This document shows, one piece after another, positions 36,209-53,587 of a DNA stretch of 64,000 nucleotides. Every line of letters begins with the position of its first letter. Positions within the stretch are counted from its first letter, which is position 1. The translations under genes were made by a program, and so were the position numbers. Origin of the DNA: a virus (Duplodnaviria > Heunggongvirae > Uroviricota > Caudoviricetes); the IMG/VR virus record IMGVR_UViG_3300043080_000590, positions 258,386-322,385 of that record. One strand, 5' to 3'. Under the pieces are notes generated by a model, which ran no database searches, had not been told where the DNA came from, and saw only the letters and a list, made by a program, of their open reading frames with translations.

Positions 36209-37762
36209 ATGTTGAGATTGACAACAAAAGGGAAAATTGCCATTTTAATTTTGCTTTTAATTATTATTGGCGTAGCAGGATTCTTTGGTGTAAAAAAGGG
36301 TTGGATTAAGACAGGTAATATTAAAGAAAAGATTGAAAATATTACTTCTTCTGTTGGTTCAACAAGTAAGGCAAGTAAGAGTAAAACAACGCAGGAAAAG
36401 ACCAATGTAATCAATTTATCTTATGACGAATGGACAGGGTGGAAAGAGATTTTAGATGCTCAATCAAGAGGATATTATGATGAAGAAGGTATTACTGTTA
36501 ATATCAGTGTAATGAATGATGCTACTGATAGTTCTAATGCTTTAATTAGCGGAGATTTAGATGCAGCAGGTTATACTGTTAATAGATATGCTTTCTTAAT
36601 GGATAAATTCAAGCAGAACAATGTTGATGTTGCAATGCCTATTATTATTAATAGAAGTAGCGGAGGTGATGGCATTATTGCTGATGCTGATATCAATTCT
36701 ATTAAAGATTTAGTAGGTAAAAAGGTTGGTGTTCCAAGATTTAGCGAAGCACAAACTTTAGTTGAATGGTTTGTTTCTAAGTCTGATTTAACAGACGATG
36801 AAAAGAGTAAAATAGAATATGTATATTTTGATACACCTGACGAAACTGCAAGTGCTTATTTCGCAGGTGAAATAAATGCTGCTGCTACTTGGCAACCATA
36901 TTTAACACAAGCACAAGAAAGCACAGATAGTCATATTCTTATTGATACAAGCAATGCTACAAGTCTTGTATTGGACGGTATTGTATTTAGACAGGATTAT
37001 CTTGATGTAAATGCAGATACAGTTGAAAAGTTCATCAGAGCTACTTTAAAGGCTTATGATGATTACAACGATACTGATTATACAGCATTAAGAAATAATA
37101 TGTCTATGTTTTCAAGTATGAGTGATGAAGAAATTGCTGATACATTACCTGATGCAACATTATTAAATTGGAATGAAAATATGGAAGTATTAGCCGATGA
37201 AGCTGTTATTCTTTATAGAGATATGTCTAATATTTGGAATGATTTAGGAGAAACAGCTTATCCTGATATGGCAGAACAAGCATTTACTACTACATATATG
37301 AGTGCTTGTGAAGATTTAAAAACTGCTGATATAAAAACTGTTTCAGTTACAGCAGAACAAAAGGAAGAAGTTAAGAATAATTCAGATAATTATGATGCTT
37401 TAATAAATGCACAAGCAACAATTAACTTTAAGGCAAATTCAGCAGTATTTGCAGACCAAGAAGAAGCTGCTAAAGCATTAGACGAATTTGTTGATACTGC
37501 TAAAATGCTTGATGGTGCAATTATTATGATTGAGGGTAACTCAGCTAATACAAATGGTGCTACTGAAAATAGTGAGTTTGATATTAAACTTACAGAACAA
37601 AGAGCTAAGACTGTTGCTAATTATTTCATTAGTAAAGGTATTGATAGTTCAAGATTTATTACTGTTGGTAATGGTATTGGTAATCAGATAGCAGATAACT
37701 CCACAGAAGAAGGTAGAGCTAAGAATAGAAGAACTGATATTAAATTCATTATTGCTGAATAA
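36209..37762 (+). CDS. Fusion protein: NitT/TauT-family substrate-binding domain (NMT1/SsuA-like) plus C-terminal OmpA-like peptidoglycan-binding domain
   Basis: It has an N-terminal TM anchor. The SBP region is …DAAGYTVNRYAFLMDK…. The OmpA-C motif is TVANYFISKGIDSSRFITVGNGIGNQIADNSTEEGRAKNRRTDIKF. Confidence 0.65.
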   Translation: MLRLTTKGKIAILILLLIIIGVAGFFGVKKGWIKTGNIKEKIENITSSVGSTSKASKSKTTQEKTNVINLSYDEWTGWKEILDAQSRGYYDEEGITVNISVMNDATDSSNALISGDLDAAGYTVNRYAFLMDKFKQNNVDVAMPIIINRSSGGDGIIADADINSIKDLVGKKVGVPRFSEAQTLVEWFVSKSDLTDDEKSKIEYVYFDTPDETASAYFAGEINAAATWQPYLTQAQESTDSHILIDTSNATSLVLDGIVFRQDYLDVNADTVEKFIRATLKAYDDYNDTDYTALRNNMSMFSSMSDEEIADTLPDATLLNWNENMEVLADEAVILYRDMSNIWNDLGETAYPDMAEQAFTTTYMSACEDLKTADIKTVSVTAEQKEEVKNNSDNYDALINAQATINFKANSAVFADQEEAAKALDEFVDTAKMLDGAIIMIEGNSANTNGATENSEFDIKLTEQRAKTVANYFISKGIDSSRFITVGNGIGNQIADNSTEEGRAKNRRTDIKFIIAE

Positions 37763-39394: not shown

Positions 39395-40483
39395 ATGAAA
39401 ATATTAATAAGTTTTTTAAATCAAAATAGTAAAGATAAAATTATTTCACCTTTTGTTAATTATAAAGATTGTGCGGCTAATGATGATAATTTAATTATTC
39501 CAGGTATTTTAAAAATTGATTATTCATCAACAGGAATTAAATGTTATTGTTATTCTTTATATATTGCTGAAATAATTATTTCTTCTATATGTACGGTAAG
39601 TGTTTCAGAAGATAATAATAATGGAAATGTTGTATTTCCTAACAATTTAGATTCAATTATGTTGGATTGTAATATATTTAGTTTTAATAAAATATTAGAA
39701 CTTGCTGTTAATGGTACAACTAATTACATAAATACAGAGAAAGAACAAATAAAAGCAAATATGTCATTATCTCAATGGCTGTCTGCTGATATAAATGTTA
39801 ATGATGGTAAAGCACTTATTAAACTACAATGCAATAATTATAATGTTTCTGTTAGTGATAAATCAGCAAAAGTATTTTGTGATAGAATAAAAGAACATCC
39901 TTTAATATTTGCGGATAATTTAAAGAAATATTTTGATTTTGGTTCTGAAATAAAAATTGAACCTAAAATTGAATATATTTATTTTTATAAAATGCTTAAA
40001 TCTGATACTGGATATAAAAAATATTCTAATTTTATCAATGACAACAAAAATTTAAACTTCAAATATAATGCAGGGAAAGAATATACTTGTAATTTATCTG
40101 ATACAGGTAAGATTGAATTTAAACTTGTTGATATAGGAGATAAATATCCCAAAAGAATTATTTTTCAATCGGGGGAATATGATGATTTAAGCGTTTTAAC
40201 TAAGTTGAAGAAATATTTTAATATAAATAATATTTCAATTATTGCAAAGGTTAGTAATTTAAAACTGTCTTTAGATAGTCTTTTAAATAAATTGAATTTT
40301 TACAAGGACGAAGATTTTTTTGTTTTTGCTAATGTAAAAGATAATTTAAAAGCTACATATAATATTTATAACAATATTATGAACATTAGACAGGATATAA
40401 AAATTGATGAAATAGATACAATAGATAATGAAAAAAATAAAGTTGAGGAATTAATAGAGGAGTTTGTAAGTTATAATGAATAA
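39395..40483 (+). CDS. Hypothetical protein (362 aa)
   Basis: RBS AAGGAAA. Confidence 0.45.
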   Translation: MKILISFLNQNSKDKIISPFVNYKDCAANDDNLIIPGILKIDYSSTGIKCYCYSLYIAEIIISSICTVSVSEDNNNGNVVFPNNLDSIMLDCNIFSFNKILELAVNGTTNYINTEKEQIKANMSLSQWLSADINVNDGKALIKLQCNNYNVSVSDKSAKVFCDRIKEHPLIFADNLKKYFDFGSEIKIEPKIEYIYFYKMLKSDTGYKKYSNFINDNKNLNFKYNAGKEYTCNLSDTGKIEFKLVDIGDKYPKRIIFQSGEYDDLSVLTKLKKYFNINNISIIAKVSNLKLSLDSLLNKLNFYKDEDFFVFANVKDNLKATYNIYNNIMNIRQDIKIDEIDTIDNEKNKVEELIEEFVSYNE

Positions 40484-40503
40484 AATATAAGGAGCTGATA
40501 TTC

Positions 40504-41016
40504 GTGAAACAATATGTTTATTTTGTAAAAGCAGGTTTTTTAGGTAAACTCAGTGACGAAATACATTGTGAGTATGATAATTTAAACTTTGTAATAAATA
40601 ATGGTAATATATATAAGACAGAATTATTACATCTTAAATTAAATAAAGACTTTAATGAAACAACTTTTCATTTAAGTAGAAAAGTAAAAGAAAAATTATT
40701 TTTCTTAACTCCAAGAGGTATATCATTATGTATAGAAAAGATTTATACTAAGATAGACAAAAAACATATTAAGAACGAATATCATATTATATTAAAATAT
40801 CATGACATTGCATATACACCTATGACAGCTTATCTCGATAAAAAAATAAGTTTTGCAGAAATGAAAAAGATATATGCTGTTTTTAATGAATGTTCTAAAA
40901 AAGAAAAGTATATAGTTTTTGAAACAAAAAAAGAAGCTATAAAATATTGTAAAAGTTATAATTTGGAAATTGTTCAAAATTATTTAATAAACACAATAAG
41001 AGAAGTAGAATTGTAA
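40504..41016 (+). CDS. Hypothetical protein
   Basis: GTG start after AAGGAG. Confidence 0.4.
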   Translation: MKQYVYFVKAGFLGKLSDEIHCEYDNLNFVINNGNIYKTELLHLKLNKDFNETTFHLSRKVKEKLFFLTPRGISLCIEKIYTKIDKKHIKNEYHIILKYHDIAYTPMTAYLDKKISFAEMKKIYAVFNECSKKEKYIVFETKKEAIKYCKSYNLEIVQNYLINTIREVEL

Positions 41017-41043
41017 AAATAAAATGTAAAGGAAGAATTGATA

Positions 41044-41382
41044 GTGAAAATTTTGAAAATGGATAGTAAACCAATAAAAAATTACGAAAATCTATTTGTT
41101 TGTCATATAAATCAATTAGATAGTAATTTTACGGAAACAAATAAATGGTTGAATTGTTTTCTTATTATTCCTAATATAACTACGTTAGTAAAGACTAAGA
41201 AAAAGAATTCAGACCAATATTATTATATAATGATACACGATATAGTTAAGTTTAATACATTATGGGCAGGACTTTTAAATTTAGCAAAGCAACCTGTTGT
41301 TGTAGATACGATAGTAAGTAATAGATTAGTAGTATGGTTTTATAAAAAACTTTACTTTACTAAGGAGGCAAATATAAAATGA
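41044..41382 (+). CDS. Hypothetical protein
   Basis: The exact start is uncertain among TTG, GTG and ATG. The end overlaps the next gene (ATGA). Confidence 0.3.
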   Translation: MKILKMDSKPIKNYENLFVCHINQLDSNFTETNKWLNCFLIIPNITTLVKTKKKNSDQYYYIMIHDIVKFNTLWAGLLNLAKQPVVVDTIVSNRLVVWFYKKLYFTKEANIK

Positions 41383-42104
41383 TTTATTTAACAGGAGATA
41401 CACACGGTGATTTCAGAAGAATAATAAGATATGATTTAACTGATAAGGATTATATAATTGTATGTGGTGATTTTGGTATTTGGCATAAAGGTCAGAATGT
41501 CAGTTTCGATTATCTTGCTAAATTACCTTATAAAATATTATTTGTAGATGGTAATCATTCTAACTTTGATTGGTTAAAAGAATTTCCTATTGAAGATTGG
41601 AATGGTGGTAAAGTTCAATTCATAAGAAAGAATATTATTCATTTAATGCGTGGATATGTTTTTAACATTGAAGGTAAAACAATATTTACTTTCGGTGGTG
41701 CAAGGTCAGTAGATGTACAAGGTGGTATATTAGATAAAAATGACCCAGATTTTAAAAATAAAAAGTTGTTTGCAGAGAATACAGGCAGACCTTATAGAAT
41801 AGACCATGAATCTTGGTGGAAAGAAGAAATGCCTAATGAAGAAGAAATGAAACGTGGTATTGATAATCTTAATAAAATAAACAATAAAGTAGATTATGTG
41901 ATTACTCACGCTACTTCTGATTGTATATTAAAACAAATATCAGATTTCTTTACTGATGATTTAATTACTAATTATTTTGCTTTAATAAGAAATAAAATAA
42001 CTTTTGATAAATGGTATTTTGGTCATTATCATATTGATGAAAATATTACAGATAAAGATATTTGCTTATATTATAGAATAATAGAATTAGGTGAAACTTT
42101 ATAA
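41379..42104 (+). CDS. Calcineurin-like metallophosphoesterase (Ser/Thr phosphatase or Mre11-like core motifs)
   Basis: Motifs GDTHG, GDFG and GNHSN are present. The protein is 241 aa. Confidence 0.65.
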   Translation: MIYLTGDTHGDFRRIIRYDLTDKDYIIVCGDFGIWHKGQNVSFDYLAKLPYKILFVDGNHSNFDWLKEFPIEDWNGGKVQFIRKNIIHLMRGYVFNIEGKTIFTFGGARSVDVQGGILDKNDPDFKNKKLFAENTGRPYRIDHESWWKEEMPNEEEMKRGIDNLNKINNKVDYVITHATSDCILKQISDFFTDDLITNYFALIRNKITFDKWYFGHYHIDENITDKDICLYYRIIELGETL

Positions 42105-42123
42105 GTACGAAGGGAAGATAAAA

Positions 42124-42552
42124 ATGTATTATGTTTATTGTTCAAAAATCTATGAAAAGAAAAAGGTTAATAAAGAACTATTGAAAAGGTCAATAAGTGA
42201 TTTTATGTTAAATTTAAAAGATATAATACCTGTTTATCGTTATCTTGTAAGAACAGAAGATAAATCTTTAAAGTTTTTATTTAAACTAATGGGGTATCAA
42301 TTATTTTACCAACAAATTGATAATGACGATTTATATGACATACATATTTATAATGGACGAAACCGTGTAAGTGATTTAGAAACAACTGTTTCAGAATATC
42401 TTTATGTTGAAGATATTCTCTTATCAGACGATATTGTTTTTAAAGATAAAATCCTTAAAGGCGTATTGGTAAAAAATTTTGGTAATATTGTAGAAATACA
42501 AGATAACTTTAAAAATTGTCAATTTGAATATTTTTATTTAGAAAATAAATGA
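42124..42552 (+). CDS. Hypothetical protein
   Basis: Start set at the ATG after GAAGGGAAG. The ORF-track start overlaps the upstream gene. Confidence 0.4.
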   Translation: MYYVYCSKIYEKKKVNKELLKRSISDFMLNLKDIIPVYRYLVRTEDKSLKFLFKLMGYQLFYQQIDNDDLYDIHIYNGRNRVSDLETTVSEYLYVEDILLSDDIVFKDKILKGVLVKNFGNIVEIQDNFKNCQFEYFYLENK

Positions 42553-42561
42553 GGTTTTAAT

Positions 42562-42933
42562 ATGAAAGATTTAATTTTAGGTATAATTTTTATTTTAATG
42601 TGTGTTGCTTTTGATGATTTTATTTTTACTTTAATATTTGAATATATTAGAAGAATGATAAAAGTTAAGCATAAACATATATTGGTTTTTTCATTTTGTT
42701 TTGTATGTGCTGTATTTTATGTTATAACTATGTTTTTTATAACCAATATATTCGCAAAGTTATTTGTATCTGGTTTTTTGCTTGCTATTGTAAATATATT
42801 CCATTTAGAATTTCAGGATATATTTATAGAATATGATTGTAGCTTTTTTACAAGATGTATTGTTCAATTATTGTCTTGGGTTGTTTTATTCTTCTTGACA
42901 TTATTGTTCTTTTCAACACCTATAATTGTATAA
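42562..42933 (+). CDS. Small membrane protein (about 4 TM)
   Basis: 123 aa that are hydrophobic. Confidence 0.45.
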   Translation: MKDLILGIIFILMCVAFDDFIFTLIFEYIRRMIKVKHKHILVFSFCFVCAVFYVITMFFITNIFAKLFVSGFLLAIVNIFHLEFQDIFIEYDCSFFTRCIVQLLSWVVLFFLTLLFFSTPIIV

Positions 42934-42942
42934 AAATATTTT

Positions 42943-42973
42943 ACCCACGGTATTTTATCGTGGGTATTTTTAT
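42943..42973 (+). terminator. Rho-independent terminator
   Basis: acccacg(gtattttat)cgtgggt followed by a T-run. Confidence 0.65.
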
Positions 42974-42986
42974 ATTTTAAAATAAG

Positions 42987-43217
42987 GTGATAAAAATGGT
43001 TAAAGTTATAAAGTTAAATAAGAAAAAAATAGATTTGCAAGATATATTTGAAAATCATCAAGAACTTTTAGAACTGACAAGTAAATTATGTTTAAATGAA
43101 AATATAATGGATAAAGAAATTGCTGATAAAATAAATAGTTATTATGAAAAGTTAAATATTTTATATAATGACTTGTTTGATATTGGTATTAATATGGAAT
43201 TTTATAATAAAGTATGA
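42987..43217 (+). CDS. Hypothetical small protein
   Basis: 76 aa with RBS AAGGTGA. Confidence 0.35.
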   Translation: MIKMVKVIKLNKKKIDLQDIFENHQELLELTSKLCLNENIMDKEIADKINSYYEKLNILYNDLFDIGINMEFYNKV

Positions 43218-43284
43218 ATTTGAGGTTTAATTTTTAAAATTTTCCTTTTATATTATAAAAAACCTAATGAAAGGAAGATTGAAA

Positions 43285-43818
43285 ATGAAGAAGTATGATG
43301 TAAACAACAATTGTATTTATTACAAAGAAAAACAAGGAGTAACAACCACATCAAATTGGTGGGATTTGACTTTACCGCAGCAGGAAGTAAGTTTAACACA
43401 AGAAGATTATGATTTTTGTAACTGTTGCAAGGAAGTATATAATGCTAACGATATTGTTAATGTAGAAATTCCTTGTGAAAATAAGGTTGTTATCGTTACA
43501 TTTGCAGATGGCACTAAGATTAAGACAGTATGTGATGAACAGGACACATTCACATTAGAAATGGCTATTTCTATCGCTATTACTAAGAAGTTGCTTGGTG
43601 GTACAGGAGCTTATAATAGAGCAATTAAACAGGGTATAAATGCTTATAAGGATAGAATTAAGGCAGAAGAAAAACAAGCCGAAAATGATAGAATTTATTA
43701 TGCAAGAAAGGCTAAGAAGGAAGCTAAGAGAAAATTAAAAGAAGAAAAGAAAAGAGAACAGTTCAAAAATGATTTAACATCAGCTATTGTTGAAGCATTA
43801 AAGACGTTGGAAAAATAA
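43285..43818 (+). CDS. Hypothetical protein with Cys cluster and basic C-terminal tail
   Basis: Start at MKKYDV after AAAGGAAG. CNCC...C...C motifs are present. The C-terminus is K/E-rich. Confidence 0.4.
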   Translation: MKKYDVNNNCIYYKEKQGVTTTSNWWDLTLPQQEVSLTQEDYDFCNCCKEVYNANDIVNVEIPCENKVVIVTFADGTKIKTVCDEQDTFTLEMAISIAITKKLLGGTGAYNRAIKQGINAYKDRIKAEEKQAENDRIYYARKAKKEAKRKLKEEKKREQFKNDLTSAIVEALKTLEK

Positions 43819-43834
43819 TTTGGGGTGAATATAT

Positions 43835-44098
43835 ATGGAAAAAAGAGATGAGGTAATTAATTATTACTATAAGAAGTTAAAGCAATTACATAAAAGAGCT
43901 TTTCCTGAATTAACAGTAGGTCAGGTTATTAGTAAAGCCATCGAATATAATAATTCTTTCTATAAGGAAGAACTTACAGATATTGCTGATATGACCGAAG
44001 AAGAATTACTTAAATTATTTGAAGCGTTTGCTGAATATTATAATGAAAAGAAAAATTTGCAAGTAGAAGAAAATGAAGAGGAAGAAAAGGTAGAATAA
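43835..44098 (+). CDS. Hypothetical small protein
   Basis: 87 aa with RBS GGGGTGA. Confidence 0.35.
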   Translation: MEKRDEVINYYYKKLKQLHKRAFPELTVGQVISKAIEYNNSFYKEELTDIADMTEEELLKLFEAFAEYYNEKKNLQVEENEEEEKVE

Positions 44099-44379
44099 TG
44101 AAAAATTCTAAAGAGCAGGTATTTTTTTGTAAATGCGGTTGTCATAATGGCATTTGTTTTAAGTTTGATTATGATGAGGAATGTACTCCTACTTTGAATA
44201 TTTCTTTAGTAAATGATTTGTTTTATATAAATCAATTAGGATTTTTTAAAAGATTTATTGAAAAATTAAAGAAAATATATTGTATTATTTTCAATAAAGA
44301 ATATTATTACTTTGATATAGTTATCGAATACGAAGAAATTAATCGTTTAAAAGAAATAATAAATTGTATAGGAGAATAA
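44098..44379 (+). CDS. Hypothetical Cys-rich small protein
   Basis: Contains CKCGCHNGIC. It is translationally coupled to the upstream gene (TAATG). Confidence 0.35.
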   Translation: MKNSKEQVFFCKCGCHNGICFKFDYDEECTPTLNISLVNDLFYINQLGFFKRFIEKLKKIYCIIFNKEYYYFDIVIEYEEINRLKEIINCIGE

Positions 44380-44382
44380 AAA

Positions 44383-44610
44383 ATGTCTTTTGATGAATTA
44401 AGTTATGAGGAATTAACGGAAAAGTCTGTCGAGAAGTCAGATAGATTTGGCAGATGCTTTATTTGTAGGGGTACAACAAAGTATAAGGATTTTTGTTCTG
44501 ATTTATATGTTTGCTGCGAAGCTTGTTTAAAAGAAGAACTGAAATGGTTAGAACAAAATCAAGATGTTGAGGAAGAAAGTTTTATAGGAAAAATGAGAAG
44601 TTATTACTAA
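44383..44610 (+). CDS. Hypothetical zinc-ribbon small protein
   Basis: Contains CFICRG...CCEAC. Confidence 0.35.
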   Translation: MSFDELSYEELTEKSVEKSDRFGRCFICRGTTKYKDFCSDLYVCCEACLKEELKWLEQNQDVEEESFIGKMRSYY

Positions 44611-44616
44611 TATTAC

Positions 44617-44648
44617 AAGAGGAGGATTAATTGCCTCCTCTTTTTTAT
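44617..44648 (+). terminator. Rho-independent terminator
   Basis: aagaggagg(attaattg)cctcctctt followed by TTTTTT. Confidence 0.75.
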
Positions 44649-44658
44649 TAAAAAACAG

Positions 44659-44687
44659 TTGACAAAACATAAAAAATATGGTATAAT
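44659..44687 (+). promoter_or_regulatory. Conserved-family promoter with extended -10 (TTGACA-17-TGgTATAAT)
   Basis: TTGACA at 44659-44664 and TGGTATAAT at 44679-44687. Confidence 0.75.
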
Positions 44688-44718
44688 ATATGTAATCAAA
44701 TAAAAGGGAGAAAAATAA

Positions 44719-45012
44719 ATGAATAATGATGTACATAGTATAAATATGTTACTAATGGCAAAAGAAATAATACGATATGAAATACAAGAAGTTTTAGATA
44801 ATGAAAATGATTTACCAACTCATATATTCTTTTGGTTGAAATATCATTTTGACTCTGCTTATCCAGTAGTCGCTATGGAAAGTATTTTAAATAGTGAGGG
44901 TAAAGAAAGCGAATATTATAAAACTTTTAGTTCTTATAAACAAGTAATAGATATTTTTAAAAGACAATTAATTACAACAAGTATGAACTTGCAAGCTGAA
45001 CAAAACAATTGA
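44719..45012 (+). CDS. Hypothetical protein
   Basis: 97 aa with RBS AAGGGAG. Confidence 0.4.
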   Translation: MNNDVHSINMLLMAKEIIRYEIQEVLDNENDLPTHIFFWLKYHFDSAYPVVAMESILNSEGKESEYYKTFSSYKQVIDIFKRQLITTSMNLQAEQNN

Positions 45013-45043
45013 ATTTAAAAAATTATGAAAGGGGATTTGATTT

Positions 45044-45208
45044 ATGGAATATATTATTGTTGGTGCTATAGTTATTTGTGCGATACATCTTTTAGTAGTT
45101 GGCATAGATAATATTATAAATAATAGAATATCTTTGCATACAATAGCTTGGGTATTCTTAATCATTGTGACATATATTTTATATAAATGGAATCCCTTGG
45201 GATTGTAA
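45044..45208 (+). CDS. Unlisted small membrane peptide (54 aa)
   Basis: The ATG at 45044 follows AAAGGGGA. It has two hydrophobic segments (MEYIIVGAIVICAIHLLVVG...). It is absent from the ORF track, which appears to use a 60-aa cut-off. Confidence 0.35.
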   Translation: MEYIIVGAIVICAIHLLVVGIDNIINNRISLHTIAWVFLIIVTYILYKWNPLGL

Positions 45209-45217
45209 GGTGAATTT

Positions 45218-45760
45218 ATGAGAAAATATGCTAATAACGAAGAAGTTTTCGAATATTATTCTATTCCATACAAATATCCATATTTAAGTGATGCTCAAAT
45301 TTTTGTTTATTTATATACAGAAGAAATAGATAAAGATTTAGTTTCTCAATATATGGATGAACCACAATTTTTAATGAACTTATACAAGTTCTTGTCAGGA
45401 GGAGATAAAATTGAGTTAATAAAGAAAATAACAAGATTATGGAAATTACTTGATTTAAATGATAATGACGAATTTATATTTTTTCAGTCAATAGTTTTCT
45501 TGTCTAATATAAATAAAAAATTATACTGTCAAGGATATAATATATACTGTGATATTGATGTACTTGTAAATCAGTTACCATTTCTTTTATTCAAGACAAG
45601 CGAAAGACGTGAAGAAATTATAAATAATGTACAGATGTATGCTTCAGACGATACTAATAATAGTATGGACTATCAACTAAATATGCTATTTGCAGAACTT
45701 TCTGTTCTTATTGGCAAAGAACATATTAAGATTTATTCACTGCTTTTAAATAAACAATGA
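45218..45760 (+). CDS. Hypothetical protein
   Basis: 180 aa with RBS AAGGTGA. Confidence 0.4.
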   Translation: MRKYANNEEVFEYYSIPYKYPYLSDAQIFVYLYTEEIDKDLVSQYMDEPQFLMNLYKFLSGGDKIELIKKITRLWKLLDLNDNDEFIFFQSIVFLSNINKKLYCQGYNIYCDIDVLVNQLPFLLFKTSERREEIINNVQMYASDDTNNSMDYQLNMLFAELSVLIGKEHIKIYSLLLNKQ

Positions 45761-46268
45761 GAGGTGTTGAATAATATGTATTTGAATTTAACGGACGTTT
45801 TTGACATAGGATGTAATATAGATTGTAATTCTGATTATCTAATAGATAATTTTGATTGGTATGATTTTTGTTATAATCATATTGATTATTATTATGACGA
45901 TGATAATTGTGTAGAGGATTATGATTTTTCAATTTATGAAAAGAAAGATTTAAATATACTGAAAAGTTATTTAACTAATTGTATTGAATTTCCTAATAAT
46001 GGAGATATTCAAAAGTGTTTGGATTTATTTAAAGTTAGAAATATCTCTGAACTTAAAGACAATTATTTAAAAGAACTTAGTCTTTTCCGAGTTACAGACA
46101 ATGTTGAGGAAATTGTTGCAACAATAAAGAATTGTTGTAATTTCAATGTAGAGAGGTTAAAGAAATCAGTTGTAGATACTATTATTGAAATAAGGCAACC
46201 GCAATCTCACTGGCTTTAGACGGTGGGTTAAGGTTGCCAAAAGTATAAAATTGTAGTATAATCTTATT

Positions 46269-46673
46269 ATGGAAGTATGGAAATCAAAGAACAGACACAA
46301 GTATTTATTACAATATCATATAATCTTTGTATGTAAATACAGAAAGAAATTATTTACATTTGATAGAATATTAGATGACATAAAACAGTTTTCGTATGAG
46401 ATATGTCAAAAACACAGTGTAATAATTAAATATATGGAAACTGATAAAGACCATATCCATTATATGATAGAAACAGAACCAACGATGTCTGTTAGTAAAA
46501 TAGTAAATCTTATGAAAAGTTATACAACATATCATATATGGAAACGCTATTCGGTTTATTTAAGAAAACGCTATTGGAAAGAAAATACTTTTTGGACTAA
46601 TGGATGTTTTGCTTGCAGTGTAGGAAATGTTTCGGAAGAAATGTTAAAAGAATATATAGAAAATCAAGGTTAA
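46269..46673 (+). CDS. tnpA: IS200-like Y1 transposase TnpA
   Basis: 134 aa. The HxH motif is HIHYMIE and the catalytic Tyr region is YTTYHIWKRY. Confidence 0.8.
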   Translation: MEVWKSKNRHKYLLQYHIIFVCKYRKKLFTFDRILDDIKQFSYEICQKHSVIIKYMETDKDHIHYMIETEPTMSVSKIVNLMKSYTTYHIWKRYSVYLRKRYWKENTFWTNGCFACSVGNVSEEMLKEYIENQG

Positions 46674-46680
46674 AAAGGCG

Positions 46681-47794
46681 GTGACAGCGATGTTAAAGGC
46701 ATACAAATACAGGATTTATCCCAATGAAGAACAAAAGATATTGTTAGCAAAAACATTCGGCTGTTGCCGTTTTGTTTATAATAAAACACTTGCATACCGT
46801 AAAGAAAAATATGATAGTGAAAGAAAGTCTGTTAGTAAAACAGATTGTAATAATTACTGCAACAGAGAATTAAAGACAGCATATGAATGGCTGAAAGAAG
46901 TGGATAAATTTGCCCTTACCAATGCTGTTTACAATATGGATAATGCTTATCAAAAATTTTTTAAGGAACATACAGGCTATCCTAAATTTAAAAGTAAGCA
47001 CGACAATAACAAATCATATACAACCAATTATACCAATGGTAATATTGACGTAGATTTTGAGAACGGAAGAATAAAACTCCCAAAACTTAAACAAGTAAAG
47101 GCAAAACTACACAGAGTTTTTGACGGACAAATAAAATCAGCCACAGTTTCACAAGTACCGAGCGGAAAATTTTTTGTATCTGTTCTGGTGGAAACCGAGC
47201 ATAAAGAACTTCCACATAAACAAACGAATATTGGGTTAGATTTAGGAATTAAGGATTTGTGTATAACATCTAATGGTAAAATTTATAAAAATCCTAAAGT
47301 AATAAAAAGGTATGAGAAAATGTTGACAAAGTTGCAAAGACAACTTGCACACAAAAAAAGAGGAAGTAATAATTATTATAAAGCAAGGAAACGGGCTGCA
47401 TTGTGTTATGAAAGAATAAAAAATACAAGAAAAGATTATTTGCATAAAATTTCAAAAGAGATTATAAGCGAAAACCAAGTTATAGTTTCAGAAGATTTGC
47501 AAATAAAAAATATGATGAAAAACGATAATCTTTCAAAAAATATAGCTGATGTATCATGGTATGATTTGACAAGGCAGTTGGAATATAAAGCAAAATGGAA
47601 TGGCAGAGAATACGTTAAAGTAGATACTTTTTATGCAAGCAGTCAAATTTGTTCCGAATGTGGATATAAGAACGCAGAAGTAAAGGATTTGTCTGTTAGA
47701 AAAATGGATATGTCCGAAATGCGGAAAAGAGCATAACAGAGATACAAATGCAGCAAAAAATATATTAGCGGAAGGACTAAGACAAATAGCATAA
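46681..47794 (+). pseudogene. tnpB: IS605 OrfB/TnpB (RuvC-like, Zn finger) with +1 frameshift in an A-run near 47700-47710
   Basis: The ORF stops after ...[15 protein letters not shown]. The +1 frame continues [29 protein letters not shown], which is the canonical TnpB zinc-finger end, down to the stop at 47792-47794. Confidence 0.7.
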
Positions 47795-47901
47795 AACAAA
47801 TATATAGGGCAGGAACTGTCCGAATTTACGCCTGTGGAGATAGTAGGTTGCGAGGTCTGAGAAACAGGAAGCCCGTTGGCTTTAGACAACGGGTAGTTCA
47901 C
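47795..47901 (+). ncRNA. Putative TnpB omega-RNA (right-end element RNA) scaffold
   Basis: A GC-rich structured right end lies directly 3' of tnpB (…gcccgttggctttagacaacgggtag…). By the known architecture of TnpB systems, the guide would be the about 16 nt immediately downstream (atttatacaactaatg). Confidence 0.4.
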
Positions 47902-48118
47902 ATTTATACAACTAATGAAGATGCTATAAATACTATAATAGTTAATATTGGTGAAGATTATGTAAATGATTTTAAAGAAAAGTATTATTCAGAAAAATAT
48001 TATTAATATAATTTAAATGTTGTAAGGCAGGTAATGTAACAGTTATCTGCTTTTTTTGTATATAAAATATATTCTTTTTTAATAGATTTATTTTTTTAAT
48101 AAAAAGGTGGGTAATATA

Positions 48119-48634
48119 ATGAAAAGATTATTAAAGAAAGCATCTAAATCTTTGAATTTAGATTTGAATGCTGTTTTTAATCTTTGCAATAGTGAAGATT
48201 GCTTTGATTATATTGAAGATAATTTCAATTGGTACGATTTTTGCTCAGACTACGTAGAATATGAATATGACGAAAATTCAGTAGATACTTATGATATTAC
48301 AATTAGTGAAAATTCAGTATTAAGAATTGTTAAAGAGTTTTTAGAAGAAAATATTGTTTTTCCTAGTAATATTCAAGAATGTTTAGACTTATTTAAAGAC
48401 AATAATTTATCTGAACTTAAAAATACATATTTAAAAAATTGTGATATCTTTGATTATTTAAATGATGAAGAAGCTATTGAAGAAATTAAACAAATTAGTG
48501 GTTTTAATGCAGAAAAATTAAAAAAGGCTGTATTGAATTGTCTTGTTGAATCTTGGATTTTTGCAGAAAAATATGGTCAAGTAGAAAGAAACATAATTGA
48601 AATAGGTAATGAATACGCAGACGAATTTAAATAA
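48119..48634 (+). CDS. Hypothetical protein, intact paralog of the IS-interrupted gene
   Basis: RBS AAAGGTGG. Conserved motifs N(F)xWYDFC and ...ECLDLFK...LSELK are shared with 45764. Confidence 0.5.
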   Translation: MKRLLKKASKSLNLDLNAVFNLCNSEDCFDYIEDNFNWYDFCSDYVEYEYDENSVDTYDITISENSVLRIVKEFLEENIVFPSNIQECLDLFKDNNLSELKNTYLKNCDIFDYLNDEEAIEEIKQISGFNAEKLKKAVLNCLVESWIFAEKYGQVERNIIEIGNEYADEFK

Positions 48635-48789
48635 GAGGAAATTTGCAGTTTTGAATGTTATCTTAACATATAAAAATTCTTCTTTAAAAAAATAATTATA
48701 TTTTTATATAAGTAGGTAAATAAAATGTTTACCTACTTATTTTTTGTGCGTAAACATATTATTAAATTATTTTATAAGGAGGAAATAAT

Positions 48790-49047
48790 ATGGATATGGA
48801 TTTACATATTAAAACTTTTAATAAATCTCAAATGAATGAGATATTAAAATTATTAGCTTGGATGGAGCTGTGTGGTAATATTGGTCATTGTTCAGATTTT
48901 ACAGTAAGATTTGATGGCGATGGTCAAGCTAATTTAAAAGTTAGTTTCGATAATGAAGCTATACAAAATTCTTATGATGAAATGAGAAGAAAGTCACTTA
49001 GACAATATGATGAAAGTAGTAAAGAACCAAAGTTTATTATTGAGTAA
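48790..49047 (+). CDS. Hypothetical small protein
   Basis: 85 aa with RBS AAGGAGG. Confidence 0.4.
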   Translation: MDMDLHIKTFNKSQMNEILKLLAWMELCGNIGHCSDFTVRFDGDGQANLKVSFDNEAIQNSYDEMRRKSLRQYDESSKEPKFIIE

Positions 49048-49062
49048 AGGAGGAACAAAGTT

Positions 49063-50019
49063 TTGATTTTAGAAAATCAAACAGTTGTTATTCAATGGAC
49101 GGGGCGTAATAGAAAAGAATATGAGGAATTAGGATATATCTTTACTAAATTTGGAGACCCGTTAGAAATTAAAGTAGAACATTTACATAAAGGTTCTCAT
49201 GAAGAAGTTTGGTATGAATGTGATAATTGTCAAAAAAAAGATAAAAGAGAATATAGAAAACTTCTTAAACAAGATATACATTATTGTAAAAAATGTTGTA
49301 CAATTAGACGAGAAGAAACTTGTATGAAAAAATATGGAGTAAAAAATACATTTCAGAGTGAAGAAAAAAAGGAAAAAATGCGACAAACTTGGAATAGAAA
49401 ATATGGAGTAGATAGCCCTTTAAAAAATAAAGAAATACACGATAAAGTAGAAGCAACCTGTATGAAAAAATATGGGGTAAAAAATACTTTTCAAGTAAAA
49501 GAGTTTCAAGAAAAAGGTAGACAGACAATAATTGAACGCTATGGAGAAGATTATTATAAAGAAAAAGCACTTACAATGATAAGAGCTTTAAATAATAAAA
49601 ATAGCTCAACAAGAACTTCTAATAATCAAGCAAGTATTTGTAATTGGACAAATGGTACTTTAAATTATAGAGTAAATAAATATTCTTTAGATATTAGAGT
49701 AAATGATAATTTGTATATTGAATACGATGGTTCAGGACATACATTACCTGTTATTTTAAAACAAGTTTCTAAAAAAGTTTTTAAGAAAAAAGAATTATAC
49801 AGAAACAAATATATGGAAAACTTGGGATATAAACTTATAAGGGTTATTAATCGTCAAGATGTTGATTTAAATAAAGATGAATTTTTAAAGTTATATAATT
49901 TCTGTGTTGATTATCTTAAAAATACAAATTATAAATGGATAAAAATTTATTATGACAAACAAATTGTTATAAGTAATATTTTTAAAAAAACTTTTGAAGA
50001 GGTGATAAATAATGAGTAA
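49063..50019 (+). CDS. Putative free-standing homing-endonuclease-like protein: N-terminal triplicated KYGVxNTFQ modules plus C-terminal Vsr/DUF559-like (PD-(D/E)xK) nuclease domain
   Basis: Three repeats of C(M)KKYGVKNTFQ... are present. The C-terminal segment YIEYDGSGH...ENLGYKLIRV resembles the DUF559/Vsr fold. It abuts the gyrB start, and the stop and start overlap. Confidence 0.45.
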   Translation: MILENQTVVIQWTGRNRKEYEELGYIFTKFGDPLEIKVEHLHKGSHEEVWYECDNCQKKDKREYRKLLKQDIHYCKKCCTIRREETCMKKYGVKNTFQSEEKKEKMRQTWNRKYGVDSPLKNKEIHDKVEATCMKKYGVKNTFQVKEFQEKGRQTIIERYGEDYYKEKALTMIRALNNKNSSTRTSNNQASICNWTNGTLNYRVNKYSLDIRVNDNLYIEYDGSGHTLPVILKQVSKKVFKKKELYRNKYMENLGYKLIRVINRQDVDLNKDEFLKLYNFCVDYLKNTNYKWIKIYYDKQIVISNIFKKTFEEVINNE

Positions 50020-50329
50020 TAATTATGATGTTGGGCAAATATCGTCTTTGGAAGGATTAAAATCCGTGCAATGTAAGCCAGCCATGTATGTAGGTTCTAC
50101 CTCCCAAGATGGTGTAAACCAAATAATTTATGAAGTATGGGATAATTCATTTGATGAATACAATGCAGGGTATGGAAATAGTGTTGATGTTCTTATTGAT
50201 AAGGACAATTATATAACTATTGAAGACCACGGTAGAGGTATTCCTGTTGGACCTCATGCTACTTGGAAAAATCCCGATGGTACACCGCAAGATACATTAA
50301 CAGGCGTATTAACAAGATTACACTCAGGT
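50012..50329 (+). CDS. gyrB: DNA gyrase subunit B, exon 1 (ATPase N-terminus, ends ...TRLHSG)
   Basis: Sequence ...VQCKPAMYVGSTS...EVWDNSFDE...EDHGRGIPV... is GyrB-like. The ORF stops 5 codons into intron 1. Confidence 0.8.
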
Positions 50330-50661
50330 AAGGGAATGATTGCTTGAGTATAAAACCACTTTAATTGAATTTTATATAAATAAAAATAATATAAAATTGC
50401 TGGAAACCTCTAAGATTTAAATTACTACAACATAATCGGAAATGATAGGTGTGAAAGTTAAAAAAATTTAAAATACATGAGCAATCAGCAGCCAAAATTC
50501 TAAGTATGATTAAGTTATATATGAATAAGGTTCAACGACTATCGAAAACGTAAGAAATATTTTTACAAGTGAGTAGAGTACATATATGAAAATATATGGA
50601 AACGAGTGGCACATTTTTTATGTGAAGATATAGTCTAATTTATATTGAAAAATATAAGTTG
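50330..50661 (+). ncRNA. Group I intron 1 (ORF-less, 332 nt)
   Basis: P1 forms between exon CUCAGGU and the IGS GCUUGAG at 50343-50349, with a U-G wobble at the splice site. Core elements are P aattgctggaaa (50393), Q aatcagcagcc (50481), R gttcaacgactatcg (50529) and S aagatatagtct (50624). The 3' terminal nucleotide is G, and the spliced product reads LHSG|GKLF. Confidence 0.8.
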
Positions 50662-51658
50662 GGTAAATTATTTGCTAATGGGGAATCAGGATATTTTAGT
50701 ACGATAGGCACGTATGGTCTGGGAGCAAAACTTACTAACGCTTTATCTGATGATTTTATCGCTAAAGTGAAAAGAAATGGTAGAATTTATCGGCAAACAT
50801 TTAAAAAAGGTAGACCTACCTCTGATGTTGAAATTATTGGTACTGTTGATTTAAATGATACAGGAACTAAAATTACGTTTCATCCTGACTCTACAATATT
50901 TAAAACGACAATTCAACCAAATGATAAAAAATTACAAAACAGACTTGATGAAATAACTTCTTTAAATACTAATTTAAAAGTTAATTATAAAAATGAATTG
51001 GCTAATGTAGATACAACATTTTATTATCCTAATGGTATCGCTGATTATATAAATAAGAAGTTGTTAAAAGATAAAAAACTTTTGTTCGAAGAACCAATTT
51101 ATTATTCAAGTGAATACGTGGATAATGATGAAACTATTAAAGTTGAATTTTCTTTAATGTATGTTGATGATGTGGAAAGTAATGAAATTATTAAAACATT
51201 TGCTAATAATGTATCAACAAAAGAACACGGTACACATTTAGTAGGTTTTAAAGAGGGTTACAAAGAAGCTATTAATCAATATTCAATAAGTAAAAAATGG
51301 ATAACCGAACCCATTGAGATTAAATATCTAATGGATAATATTTGTTTAATTGTATCTGTTAAGTTAAGAGAATGTGAGCTTGATGGACAAACAAAAAATA
51401 AATTAGGTAATTTAATAGCTAAAGATGGTGTTGCTAATGTTGTTAAAGAATACTTTAATAAATTAAGTAAAGAACAACAAGTAGTAATACAAACAATAGT
51501 TGAAAGAGCTAATAAAGTAAAAGAAGCAGAAGAAGCTGCAAGGAGAGCAAGAATAAACACAAGGACTGCTAATAAAATAAAGAAAATAGCATTACCTGGT
51601 AAACTTGCTGATTGTAGTAGCAATAAAGGATATAGTGAGTTATTCTTAGTTGAAGGAG
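50662..51658 (+). CDS. gyrB: DNA gyrase subunit B, exon 2 (…GKLFANGESGY…LADCSSNKGYSELFLVEG)
   Basis: GyrB ATPase-transducer and the start of TOPRIM. The ORF-track ORF is 50659-51666. The exact 3' boundary is uncertain by 1-2 nt. Confidence 0.75.
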
Positions 51659-52038
51659 TAGCCTAAGGCAGAAACTCCCTATTAAGTAGTAATATTTAAT
51701 AGAAAATTTCTTTAATTGCTGGAAGTTCCTAAAATTAATTATACCTTATAAAAGGTTGCGAAAGTAGAAAAAAATAATTAAATGATATATGGTGATAGTA
51801 AACCTAAGTATTATAAGAAATAATAATTTCTAACAATGGATAATCAGCAACAAAATATATAAATAAAAAATATATATGTTCAACGACTATGCTTTAAAAA
51901 GCAGTAGGATAAAAGTTTATCTGAAATGGGAAAATACTTAAATGTTTAAGTATATGATATAGTCTATGCACTAATGAAAGTTAGTGAAAAACTAAATGTT
52001 TTTATTATAGTTTAACAAACTATGGTTAATGTAATTAG
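51659..52038 (+). ncRNA. Group I intron 2 (ORF-less, about 380 nt), same subfamily as intron 1
   Basis: Core elements are P aattgctggaag (51711), Q aatcagcaac (51843), R gttcaacgactatgc (51879) and S atgatatagtcta (51954). The 3' end is G at 52038. The 5' junction is placed by protein homology (EG|DSAGG). Confidence 0.7.
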
Positions 52039-52106
52039 ATTCTGCTGGTGGTTCAGCAAAGAACGCAAGATATAGAGAATTTCAAGCTATATTACCATTA
52101 AGAGGT
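52039..52106 (+). CDS. gyrB: DNA gyrase subunit B, exon 3 ((D)[22 protein letters not shown])
   Basis: 68-nt micro-exon encoding the invariant [16 protein letters not shown] segment. It is absent from the ORF track. Confidence 0.75.
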
Positions 52107-52416
52107 AAGGAATTTGCCTCTACATTTCTAACTGTTTGATATAACAGGGTATGCTTAAAAACGATTTAAATTCGTTTTAAGGCTTGCTAACGAGGAAAGC
52201 TTAACATTATACATATAAGTCAAAATATGTTCAGGTGAAGTCAATCTCGTGCGAAATATAGCGATTTAATAATCGCTGTTCGTGTATCGACTATCCTAAG
52301 TTAGATTAGGAGTACAGGTTTTATAAAACTTGGAAATGGAATGACCGTTTTAAAAAGTTTGACAAACTTATAGGCTAAGAAATAGTCAGTGCTATTAGAA
52401 ATAATAGATTATAATG
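52107..52416 (+). ncRNA. Group I intron 3 (ORF-less, 310 nt), different subfamily
   Basis: P1 forms between exon AGAGGU and the IGS GCCUCU at 52116-52121, with a U-G wobble at the splice site. The 3' terminal nucleotide is G at 52416. The spliced product reads LRG|KILNTEKA. Confidence 0.7.
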
Positions 52417-53216
52417 AAAATCCTTAATACTGAAAAAGCCAGTTTTGAAAAAGCATTAAATTCAGATGTTATTAAATCATTTATTGCTGCAATAGGAACA
52501 GGTATAGGAAAGAATTTTAATATAGATAAATGTAGATATGATAAAATAATTATGATGTGTTTTACAGAAGATACGCAAGTAAAACTTTTAAATGGTACAA
52601 ATCCAACTTTTAAAGAATTAGTTGAAATGGAAGAAAAAAATCCCAATCAAACTTATGAAGTTTATTCAAAAAATAGTAATGGAAAAATTGTACACGGTAA
52701 AGCACATAACCCAAGAATTACAAGTTATATTCACGAATTAGTTGAGTTGACATTAAATAATAATGAGGTTGTTAAATGTACAAGAAATCATTTATTTATG
52801 CTTAATGATGGTACATATAAAGAAGCTCAATTATTAACGACAGAAGATTGTTTAATGAGTATGCAGGAAGAATGTAATAGGATTATTAATAAACAAATTG
52901 TTACTCTTGACCATTTAATTCCTGTCTATGATATAACAGTAGAGGAATATCATAACTTTGCTTTAAATAGTGGTGTGTTTGTTCATAACTGTGATGCGGA
53001 CGTTGACGGTTATCATATCTCAAACTTAATTTTAACTTTTATATATAATTATATGCGACCTTTAATTGAAAATGGTTATATATATTTAACAGTACCACCT
53101 CTTTATAAAGTTATTACTAAAAAGGAAAGTCTTTATATAAGAGATGATATTGAGTTAAAAGAATATAAAAAGAAACACCCAAGAGAAAATTTAGAAGTAC
53201 AAAGATTTAAGGGGCT
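52417..53216 (+). CDS. gyrB: DNA gyrase subunit B, exon 4 (TOPRIM), containing a mini-intein
   Basis: Sequence KILNTEKASF...IGTGIGKNF...KIIMM[intein]CDADVDG...PPLYKV...QRFKGL. The ORF-track ORF is 52414-53250. Confidence 0.8.
52558..52989 (+). other. Mini-intein (144 aa, no endonuclease domain) in the GyrB TOPRIM motif
   Basis: It starts CFTEDTQVKL with Cys1. Block-B-like CTRNH is present. It ends GVFVHN and is followed by Cys+1. Removing it restores IIMM-CDADVDG, matching the conserved IIMTDADVDG motif. Confidence 0.75.
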
Positions 53217-53587
53217 AACTCTTTGTCCTGACCCCTATTCATTTTATTAAGTAAGTTTAATACTTGCAAACGGAAAGAGCCTAAGTATGTTTAGAAAAAT
53301 ATTTTTGTAATAATTTAAAATATTTTTGCAATATAAGGTAATCCCGTGGGAAGATATTTAGAAAATATTTTTTTAGAAAGTGTTTTTTAGAAAGTGTTTT
53401 TAAATAATTATTTTTTAAATATAGCCTGTACAGACTAAAGGTAGGAAACCTTGTAGGAATAAATTAAATTCCGAAACAGTGAATAGTTATATTATGTTGG
53501 TATTGTTTTTATAAATCTTTAAATACTGTTAAAATAATATAAATAAAGATATAGTCGGCGGTTTATAGAAATATAAATTAAACGCAT
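53217..53587 (+). ncRNA. Group I intron 4 (ORF-less, about 371 nt)
   Basis: P1 forms between exon AAGGGGCU and the IGS GACCCCU at 53230-53236, with U53216 wobble-paired to G53230. An S-like aagatatagtcgg lies at 53546 and R-like gtacagactaaa and P-like aatcccgtgggaag are present. It contains a 15-nt tandem repeat at 53377-53406. Confidence 0.65.

Follow-up and report, generated by a model that had tools for sequence, protein, structure and literature searches.

A 1,712-bp IS200/IS605-type insertion sequence within one member of a pair of adjacent paralogous genes in a very large uncultured phage

The stretch of DNA analysed here, hereafter the window, comprises 64,000 nucleotides (positions 258,386 to 322,385) of the virus record IMGVR_UViG_3300043080_000590, and all coordinates refer to positions within it. 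In this window, a very large uncultured phage has two sister genes next to each other, one of which is interrupted by a 1,712-bp insertion sequence (IS) of the IS200/IS605 type. Read from 5' to 3', the locus consists of the 5' part of the interrupted gene, the IS with its genes tnpA and tnpB, a 3' remnant of the interrupted gene, a terminator-like hairpin and an intact paralogue; all of these features are on the + strand.

The 5' part of the interrupted gene spans 45776..46189 and is made up of 138 codons, starting from an ATG at position 45776 with an AGAGGTG ribosome-binding site before it. Judging from these signals, this ATG is most likely the start of the gene, rather than the GTG at 45764 on which a count of 142 codons is based. 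As it stands, the open reading frame (ORF) ends at a stop codon within the IS (46217-46219). A BLASTP comparison of the ORF at 45764-46216 with that at 48119-48631 gave 63 identities over 136 positions (46%, E 1e-32), and the alignment ended at residue 142 of the first ORF (nucleotide 46189) and residue 144 of the paralogue, of which 27 residues remain. Past codon 142, the first ORF continues for nine further codons (IRQPQSHWL*), and these belong to a segment that can be aligned to the left end of other copies of the IS. The truncated 147-aa product (P0001) was observed on 8-9 contigs. The intact paralogue (P0002, 171 aa) is encoded at 48119-48634, its ORF also being listed from 48107, and it retains a TTGAA at the homologous codons (GTT-GAA, 48545-48549).

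On the other side of the IS, the 3' remnant of the interrupted gene (47902..48006) contains 34 sense codons (47902-48003) followed by a stop codon (48004-48006), and is translated as IYTTNEDAINTIIVNIGEDYVNDFKEKYYSEKYY*. An ungapped alignment of the remnant with the C-terminal tail of the paralogue had a score of 41, which was equalled by only 3 of 5000 shuffled sequences (p about 6e-4). When the two halves were conceptually fused (45776-46189 plus 47902-48003) and compared with the paralogue by tblastn, a single collinear high-scoring segment pair (HSP) was obtained, covering residues 3-163 with an E-value of 1e-30 and reaching the last codon of the paralogue. A terminator-like hairpin with a T-run, identified by pattern match only, is localized 18 nt past the remnant stop (48024..48063), as would be expected if a gene genuinely ended with the remnant. 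An earlier sequence-only reading had described the two ORFs as paralogs and had placed the loss of homology at codon 142 and its resumption at 47902 as a 34-codon remnant, with both gene halves still readable; the alignments bear this out, and the match of the rejoined halves to the paralogue, in frame and over their whole length, is part of the independent evidence for an IS in one copy of a duplicated gene. That reading had also tied its fate to the alignment of both flanks with a single intact homologue. The rejoined halves do align in this manner with the adjacent paralogue, which is the sole homologue that was found.

The split gene family is an orphan, and the adjacent paralogue is its sole intact comparator. 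Searches of Pfam, NCBIfam and PHROGs yielded no match for the interrupted gene, the paralogue or their neighbours, and a HMMER scan of 1.84 billion representatives recovered the two window paralogues with no further convincing member of the family. One weak match to a repeat protein in that scan (P0003, E 6e-4) was judged to be due to chance. A word-indexed protein search for an intact orthologue returned the truncated product only. The IS-free junction (GATACTATTATTGAA joined to ATTTATACAACTAATG) was also sought in IMG/VR and gave no match, an uninformative result since the phage itself is seemingly absent from that collection. The AlphaFold model of the paralogue, which was built on a two-row alignment, had a pLDDT of 39 and was unusable. 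The interrupted gene is most likely a pseudogene; if anything still performs its function, it would be the neighbouring paralogue, which is 46% identical.

To define the ends of the element, six independent related copies from gut Clostridia were compared. All six right ends finish with ...GGGTAGTTCAC, corresponding to the GTTCAC that ends at 47901, with unrelated sequence beyond. The left ends are preceded by TTGAA in five of the six copies and by TTAAA in the remaining one, and the sequence further upstream is unrelated in each. BLASTN alignments of related copies against the window start at 46180-46185 and stop at 47901 (47902 in the case of L005). If the right end is taken as 47901, the remnant is read in frame from a left boundary at 46184, 46187, 46190 or 46193, and any other boundary between 46183 and 46195 leads to a stop within 3-8 codons. 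Position 46190 was chosen as the left end because, among the in-frame starts, it is the one that leaves the whole TTGAA in the flank. The complete IS200/IS605-family element is hence localized to 46190..47901 and is 1712 bp long, with a GC content of 31% compared to 25.7% for the rest of the window.

The TTGAA motif (46185..46189), which forms part of the host-gene codons ATT-GAA, lies 5' of the left end and is read as a putative target-adjacent motif (TAM) for TnpB by analogy with the TTGAT of ISDra2 (PMC13565253). In the window, TTGAA occurs 217 times on the + strand and 164 times on the - strand. The left flank ends with ...TATTATTGAA and the right flank begins with ATTTATACAA..., so that ...TTGAA faces ATTTAT... 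across the element; no repeat is present and there is no target duplication. The sequences meeting at the insertion point are ...ATTATTGAA on the left and ATTTATACAAC... on the right. Lack of a target duplication and insertion 3' of a conserved 4-5-nt motif are the behaviour of IS200/IS605 elements; among the six copies, no conservation was seen past the right end.

The first gene of the element, tnpA (46269..46673), encodes a Y1/HUH single-strand DNA transposase of 134 aa with an HIH (HUH) motif and a YIENQ catalytic Tyr motif. Its product matched Pfam Y1_Tnp (2e-34) and the NCBIfam equivalog model NF033573 (transpos_IS200; 125 bits compared to a cut-off of 55), and the element thus encodes the Y1 (HUH) transposase of the IS605 group within the IS200/IS605 family. 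From its sequence, tnpA looks intact. The second gene, tnpB, occupies 46690..47736 as it stands and encodes 348 aa from the ATG at 46690, or 351 aa from a GTG at 46681. The product matched Pfam HTH_OrfB_IS605, OrfB_IS605 and Cas12f1-like_TNB as well as NCBIfam NF038281 (IS200_TnpB; 456 bits compared to 425), so that the helix-turn-helix, RuvC-like and zinc-ribbon TNB regions of a TnpB are all represented, although the gene is frameshifted. The family models for both genes, together with the six copies defining the ends, uphold the earlier assignment of a 1712-bp IS200/IS605 element at this position. That assignment needs to be qualified in one respect: with tnpB frameshifted, the element is not fully intact.

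The frameshift is located in an A5 run (47700..47704) that holds one extra A, past which the conserved TnpB C-terminus goes on in the +1 frame. The out-of-frame 3' end of tnpB (47705..47794, 29 residues) carries the second CxxC pair and the third RuvC Asp within an NRD sequence; the segment hnrdtnaa of this tail aligns with hdrdenaa of a solved TnpB-type nuclease. The Asp of (H/N)RD aligns with the third RuvC residue of solved TnpB-type nucleases, and is taken to be catalytic as in ISDra2 TnpB. Relatives read ...DLSVREW.CP.CG..HDRD.NAA... in one frame with no shift at this site, and deletion of one A from the run restores a protein of 367 aa; among 6103 strong matches, almost every close relative has this length. 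An identical 348-aa truncated TnpB was found on eight contigs, with three of the loci coming from three samples. Because the same product recurs on eight contigs, and overlapping contigs are 100% identical to the window, the frameshift is real and not an assembly slip, though the contigs that carry it may all derive from one clonal phage. As deduced from the sequence, the truncated TnpB lacks both the third RuvC Asp and the final Cys pair of the zinc finger, and has most likely lost its function as an RNA-guided nuclease. The element still looks capable of moving through TnpA, in which case it would do so without its RNA-guided retention nuclease. A broken tnpB beside an intact-looking tnpA is a small data point on the decay of such elements.

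Subterminal imperfect hairpins take the place of terminal inverted repeats at both ends of the element, as in the IS200/IS605 family. The decamer GGCTTTAGAC has only two occurrences in the window, at 46212 and 47878, in direct and not inverted orientation; at each end it forms the loop region of a hairpin with the common loop GCTTTAGA. At the left end, a two-tier hairpin (46194..46238) is composed of an outer stem GGCAACC/GGTTGCC (46194-46200 with 46232-46238) and an inner stem CTCACTG/CGGTGGG (46206-46212 with 46221-46227). Among its 14 pairs, two showed compensatory changes across the six copies, the outer stem being among the regions concerned. When the left end was folded as single-stranded DNA, the + strand had a free energy of -9.8 kcal/mol (z -2.4) and the - strand a z of -0.8; the fold is specific to the + strand since its G:T pairs become A:C on the other strand. 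At the right end, the hairpin (G)CCCGTTG-GCTTTAGA-CAACGGG(T) spans 47871..47894, with the element end GTTCAC (47901) reached 7-8 nt later; three of its eight pairs showed compensatory changes across the six copies, and its fold had a value of -8.6 kcal/mol (z -3.6). Strand-specific subterminal hairpins are the architecture that is expected of IS200/IS605 ends (PMC13565253). The shared subterminal motifs proposed in the sequence-only reading, and the lack of a target duplication that accompanied them, are therefore both substantiated by the decamer, the compensatory changes and the repeat-free flanks.

The right end of the element (47795..47901) is a conserved non-coding region of 107 nt that has a consensus fold and includes the putative TnpA-binding hairpin. 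It is 79-83% identical to the corresponding region of the full-length bacterial copies L006 and L036, compared with about 75% for the tnpB coding sequence. The right end is presumed to serve as the 3' part of the omega-RNA (also called reRNA) scaffold and as a TnpA binding site, and the observed conservation fits such roles; no Rfam family matched the right-end RNA. The flank immediately beyond, ATTTATACAACTAATG (47902..47917), would serve as a 16-nt omega-RNA guide if the ISDra2 mechanism applies (PMC13565253), and TTGAA and ATTTATACAACTAATG together recreate the IS-free allele. A search of the window for secondary guide targets yielded eight matches at <=3 mismatches compared to 6.35 expected, which is at chance level. 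Within the left end, a sigma-70-like promoter, TTGCCA-17-TATAAT (46234..46262), was identified 6 nt upstream of the tnpA ATG. It matches the consensus at 11 of 12 positions and is the best site in 45600-48200, on consensus match only. The promoter shares bases with the outer stem of the hairpin, and tnpA has no visible Shine-Dalgarno sequence. The tnpA mRNA may accordingly be near-leaderless, and formation of the hairpin would occlude the promoter.

The window is phage DNA, and belongs to a phage-G-like megaphage. PHROGs matches in the window included a baseplate wedge protein, a tape-measure protein, a DnaB-like helicase and an SbcC-like protein, and the 517-aa protein encoded at 36209-37762 shares 52% identity with gp249 of Bacillus phage G (497.5 kb) but only 26-27% with Lak megaphages. 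The largest contig on which the truncated product of the interrupted gene was seen is 502,690 bp in length. The frameshift, the phage-G-like megaphage host and the orphan status of the gene family are all additions to the earlier reading. The GC content of the IS (31%; GC at third codon positions, GC3, 0.22-0.24) can be compared with 35-38% for the bacterial copies, which reside in genomes of 42-47% GC; in composition, the phage copy is thus nearer to the phage that carries it. Assembly support for the insertion came from a Joint Genome Institute (JGI) contig that spans both junctions (L001) and from two others that cover the left (L004) and the right junction (L078); these derive from different samples and assemblers, and all are 100% identical. 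Two short contigs of separate runs in the Logan collection (L002 and L003) break off within the left end of the IS, at 46237. The stop could be due to a drop in coverage, or to a variant or second copy in the sample; as a sign of a multicopy IS it was set aside, since one of the two runs has a further Logan contig in which the unchanged sequence picks up again at about 46463.

Considered together, these data make it very probable that an IS200/IS605 element (46190-47901) inserted 3' of a TTGAA, with no target duplication, and split one gene of a duplicated pair. A mechanism for this event can be proposed, its steps being inferred from IS608 and ISDra2 (PMC13565253). The IS would have transposed as single-stranded DNA into the + strand of the phage gene, right after TTGAA, to leave a 138-codon 5' part that ends nine codons into the IS and a 34-codon 3' remnant. 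In its mobile cycle, TnpA would bind both subterminal hairpins on the + strand, cut after TTGAA and after GTTCAC, and excise the element as a single-stranded circle, for which the lagging-strand template would be the preferred place of reinsertion, again 3' of a TTGAA. The omega-RNA with its guide would be a transcript that starts within the 3' part of tnpB, runs through the right end and takes in about 16 nt of flank (ATTTATACAACTAATG). Guided TnpB would then cut the IS-free allele (TTGAA plus guide), and recombination with an IS-bearing sister genome would restore the element. In the present copy, this TnpB arm is most likely dead through the frameshift.

Several observations weigh against an insertion into a once-intact gene. 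The similarity of the remnant is modest when taken alone, since 228 of 5000 shuffled sequences reached the score of 41 against the whole paralogue (p about 0.05), and BLASTP with the remnant by itself found no match. In the collections searched there was neither an IS-free allele of the phage nor a third family member, and the pre-insertion state was consequently reconstructed from a 46%-identical paralogue only. The nearest relatives of the IS are only 76-80% identical, and there is thus no evidence of recent movement. The weak match of the remnant is also what speaks for a different origin of the locus, in which the upstream ORF was always short, the IS landed in an intergenic spacer and the 34-codon frame resembles the C-terminus of the paralogue by chance. 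We regard this as highly improbable, since the N-terminal alignment stops exactly at the IS boundary with 27 residues of the paralogue left, the fused product gives one collinear HSP to the last codon, and a terminator-like hairpin follows the remnant. Moreover, although one start in three would keep the frame open, 46190 agrees with the boundary derived from the other IS copies, and against the expected tail, as opposed to the whole paralogue, only 3 of 5000 shuffles matched. An assembly chimera, that is, a bacterial IS wrongly joined into a phage contig, would be in keeping with the bacterial origin of the closest IS relatives and with the two short Logan contigs that stop at 46237. The likelihood of such a join is close to negligible in view of the identical junction-spanning contigs from different samples and assemblers and the phage-like composition of the IS; given this composition and the lack of a closer relative (about 77% nucleotide and 80% protein identity at best), neither a chimera nor a very recent transfer from one of the sampled bacteria is likely. 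An IStron-like or self-splicing insertion, from which the host gene would be expressed intact via a spliced mRNA, was considered because the element lies in the sense orientation inside an ORF with halves that rejoin in frame, because this phage has group I introns nearby, and because the pentanucleotides that precede IStrons are similar (PMC13565253). When 45500-48900 was scanned permissively with Rfam (E up to 1), there was no group I intron or other family, while a gathering-threshold scan of the whole window did detect the intron at 50356-50657. In addition, no group I ribozyme was found at the 5' side of the element, where the 79 nt between the left end and tnpA are too little for a ribozyme, and the end sequence is fully accounted for by IS200/IS605 hairpins common to ordinary bacterial copies. 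Splicing is accordingly considered to have hardly any chance of being the explanation.

With the insertion of a conventional IS200/IS605 element thus favored, the alternatives that concern its tnpB can be examined. The frameshift might not be a defect: +1 slippage on A-AAA-A could give a regulated, low amount of full-length TnpB, or the truncated protein could act as a nuclease-dead RNA-guided DNA binder like the TldR repressors. Identity of the truncated product on all eight contigs carrying it would agree with such a function, as would a tRNA-Lys that could re-pair perfectly one base downstream in the A5 run and a downstream frame that is still fully open and conserved. Relatives, on the other hand, lack a shift at this site, no slow codon or stimulatory element is evident, and no second guide target was found in the window; moreover, the contigs are 100% identical overall, such that an apparently fixed frameshift may equate to one clonal phage. 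A functional frameshift is on this evidence quite improbable. An extension of the same idea would make the IS an RNA-guided homing or competition device, in which full-length TnpB produced by low-level +1 slippage on the A5 run, or a nuclease-dead DNA binder, is guided by ATTTATACAACTAATG to cut or block IS-free sibling phages at the TTGAA of this gene during co-infection. If true, this would explain the insertion being present in every sampled genome, but we consider it a very improbable account of the element.

Other mobile elements were observed in the vicinity of the IS. A gyrB/topoisomerase-II-like gene (50012-53250) is broken up by selfish elements. Its exon 1 (50012-50347) is followed by a group I intron at 50356-50657, located 2.5 kb downstream of the IS, that matched Rfam RF00028 with 52.6 bits compared to a gathering score of 50; exon 2 starts from 50659 and ends with ...ELFLVEG. 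Sub-threshold group I signals at 51891-51984 (E 1e-3) and 52227-52408 (E 0.14) flank a 24-codon mini-exon (52038-52109), and a 144-aa mini-intein (CFTEDT...FVHN, 52558-52989) is inserted within the motif formed by YDKIIMM and CDADVDGYHI. The first few bases of the gyrB-like gene are overlapped by the end of a free-standing homing-endonuclease gene (49063-50019; phrog_12131, 1e-35), in which MKKYGVKNTFQ motifs are repeated. As for the window at large, it is about 26% GC, no tRNA genes were found in the 64 kb, and the sign of the GC skew reverses over about 15-22 kb, coinciding with a block of minus-strand genes that includes an 835-aa helicase/terminase-like ORF (15629-18136).

Relatives of the element were sought in bacterial, plasmid and phage sequences. 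A scan for TnpB in one genome per bacterial species identified 71 loci, the closest of which were in gut Clostridia, namely Eubacterium and Lachnospiraceae metagenome-assembled genomes (MAGs) and Lachnoanaerobaculum saburreum. An exact scan for the right-end sequence recovered one related copy in metagenome contigs (L005) and had no match in IMG/VR. A DNA search with the IS region returned none from plasmids and only one partial match, at 77%, from phage records, and the left flank (40000-46189) had no match among phage records in a search for near-identical DNA. The gut Lachnospiraceae/Eubacteriales elements (L006, L036 and L011/L019 of L. saburreum) align over the whole 1.7 kb with 75-77% nucleotide identity and have in common with the phage copy the TTGAA, the hairpin loops and the GTTCAC end; their TnpB proteins are 77-80% identical and 367 aa in length. 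In contrast, the phage copy is about 20% diverged, has 31% and not 35-38% GC, and possesses a broken tnpB. No near-identical donor of the IS was found. The abundance of the closest relatives in gut Lachnospiraceae/Eubacteriales provides a weak hint on the host range of this phage-G-like megaphage. A copy in a Ruminococcus MAG (L007:2377-3710) has the same ends, is preceded by TTAAA and is only 1.3 kb long; it is without tnpA, its left end almost directly abutting tnpB. The Ruminococcus copy looks like a non-autonomous offshoot of this IS lineage with tnpB as its only gene.

IS200/IS605 elements have already been recorded in phages, including the jumbo Clostridium phage c-st, Helicobacter phages, Streptococcus thermophilus phages and the Prevotella Lak megaphages, and phage G itself was reported with a transposase (PMC12484599). 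In our searches, relatives of TnpB were present in 389 phage records and relatives of TnpA in 79. The best phage-record match covering essentially the whole query had about 50% protein identity, and a 5.2-kb fragment labelled 'Bacteriophage sp.' (MT838469) was 77% identical over 86% of the query. Among characterized systems, the TnpA of IS608/ISHp608 from Helicobacter pylori (2a6m) matched the tnpA product with an E-value of 8e-18, with the HUH and YIENQ motifs aligned, and by analogy the single-strand 'peel and paste' mechanism of the family would apply to the present element. IS608 differs in its target (TTAC), in the modest identity of its TnpA and in its end sequences, which are unlike those described here. 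The likeness to ISDra2 of Deinococcus radiodurans, of the IS605 group, extends to tnpA followed by tnpB on one strand, a pentanucleotide target 5' of the left end, subterminal hairpins, the lack of a target duplication and a conserved non-coding right end, as expected for reRNA/omega-RNA. ISDra2 TnpB (8bf8/8exa/8h1j) matched the frameshift-repaired TnpB over residues 3-363 with an E-value of 7e-84. The differences are the target, which is TTGAT in ISDra2 and TTGAA here, along with the two-tier left hairpin, the frameshifted tnpB and the megaphage host of the present copy. The element is hence a well-delimited new example of a known and common family in a new host genome. Its wider importance is small, with a possible use as an annotation example in which the exact ends, the TTGAA target and both gene halves are readable; to the known systems, it adds a TTGAA-targeting member of the ISDra2-like TnpB clade that is resident in a megaphage.

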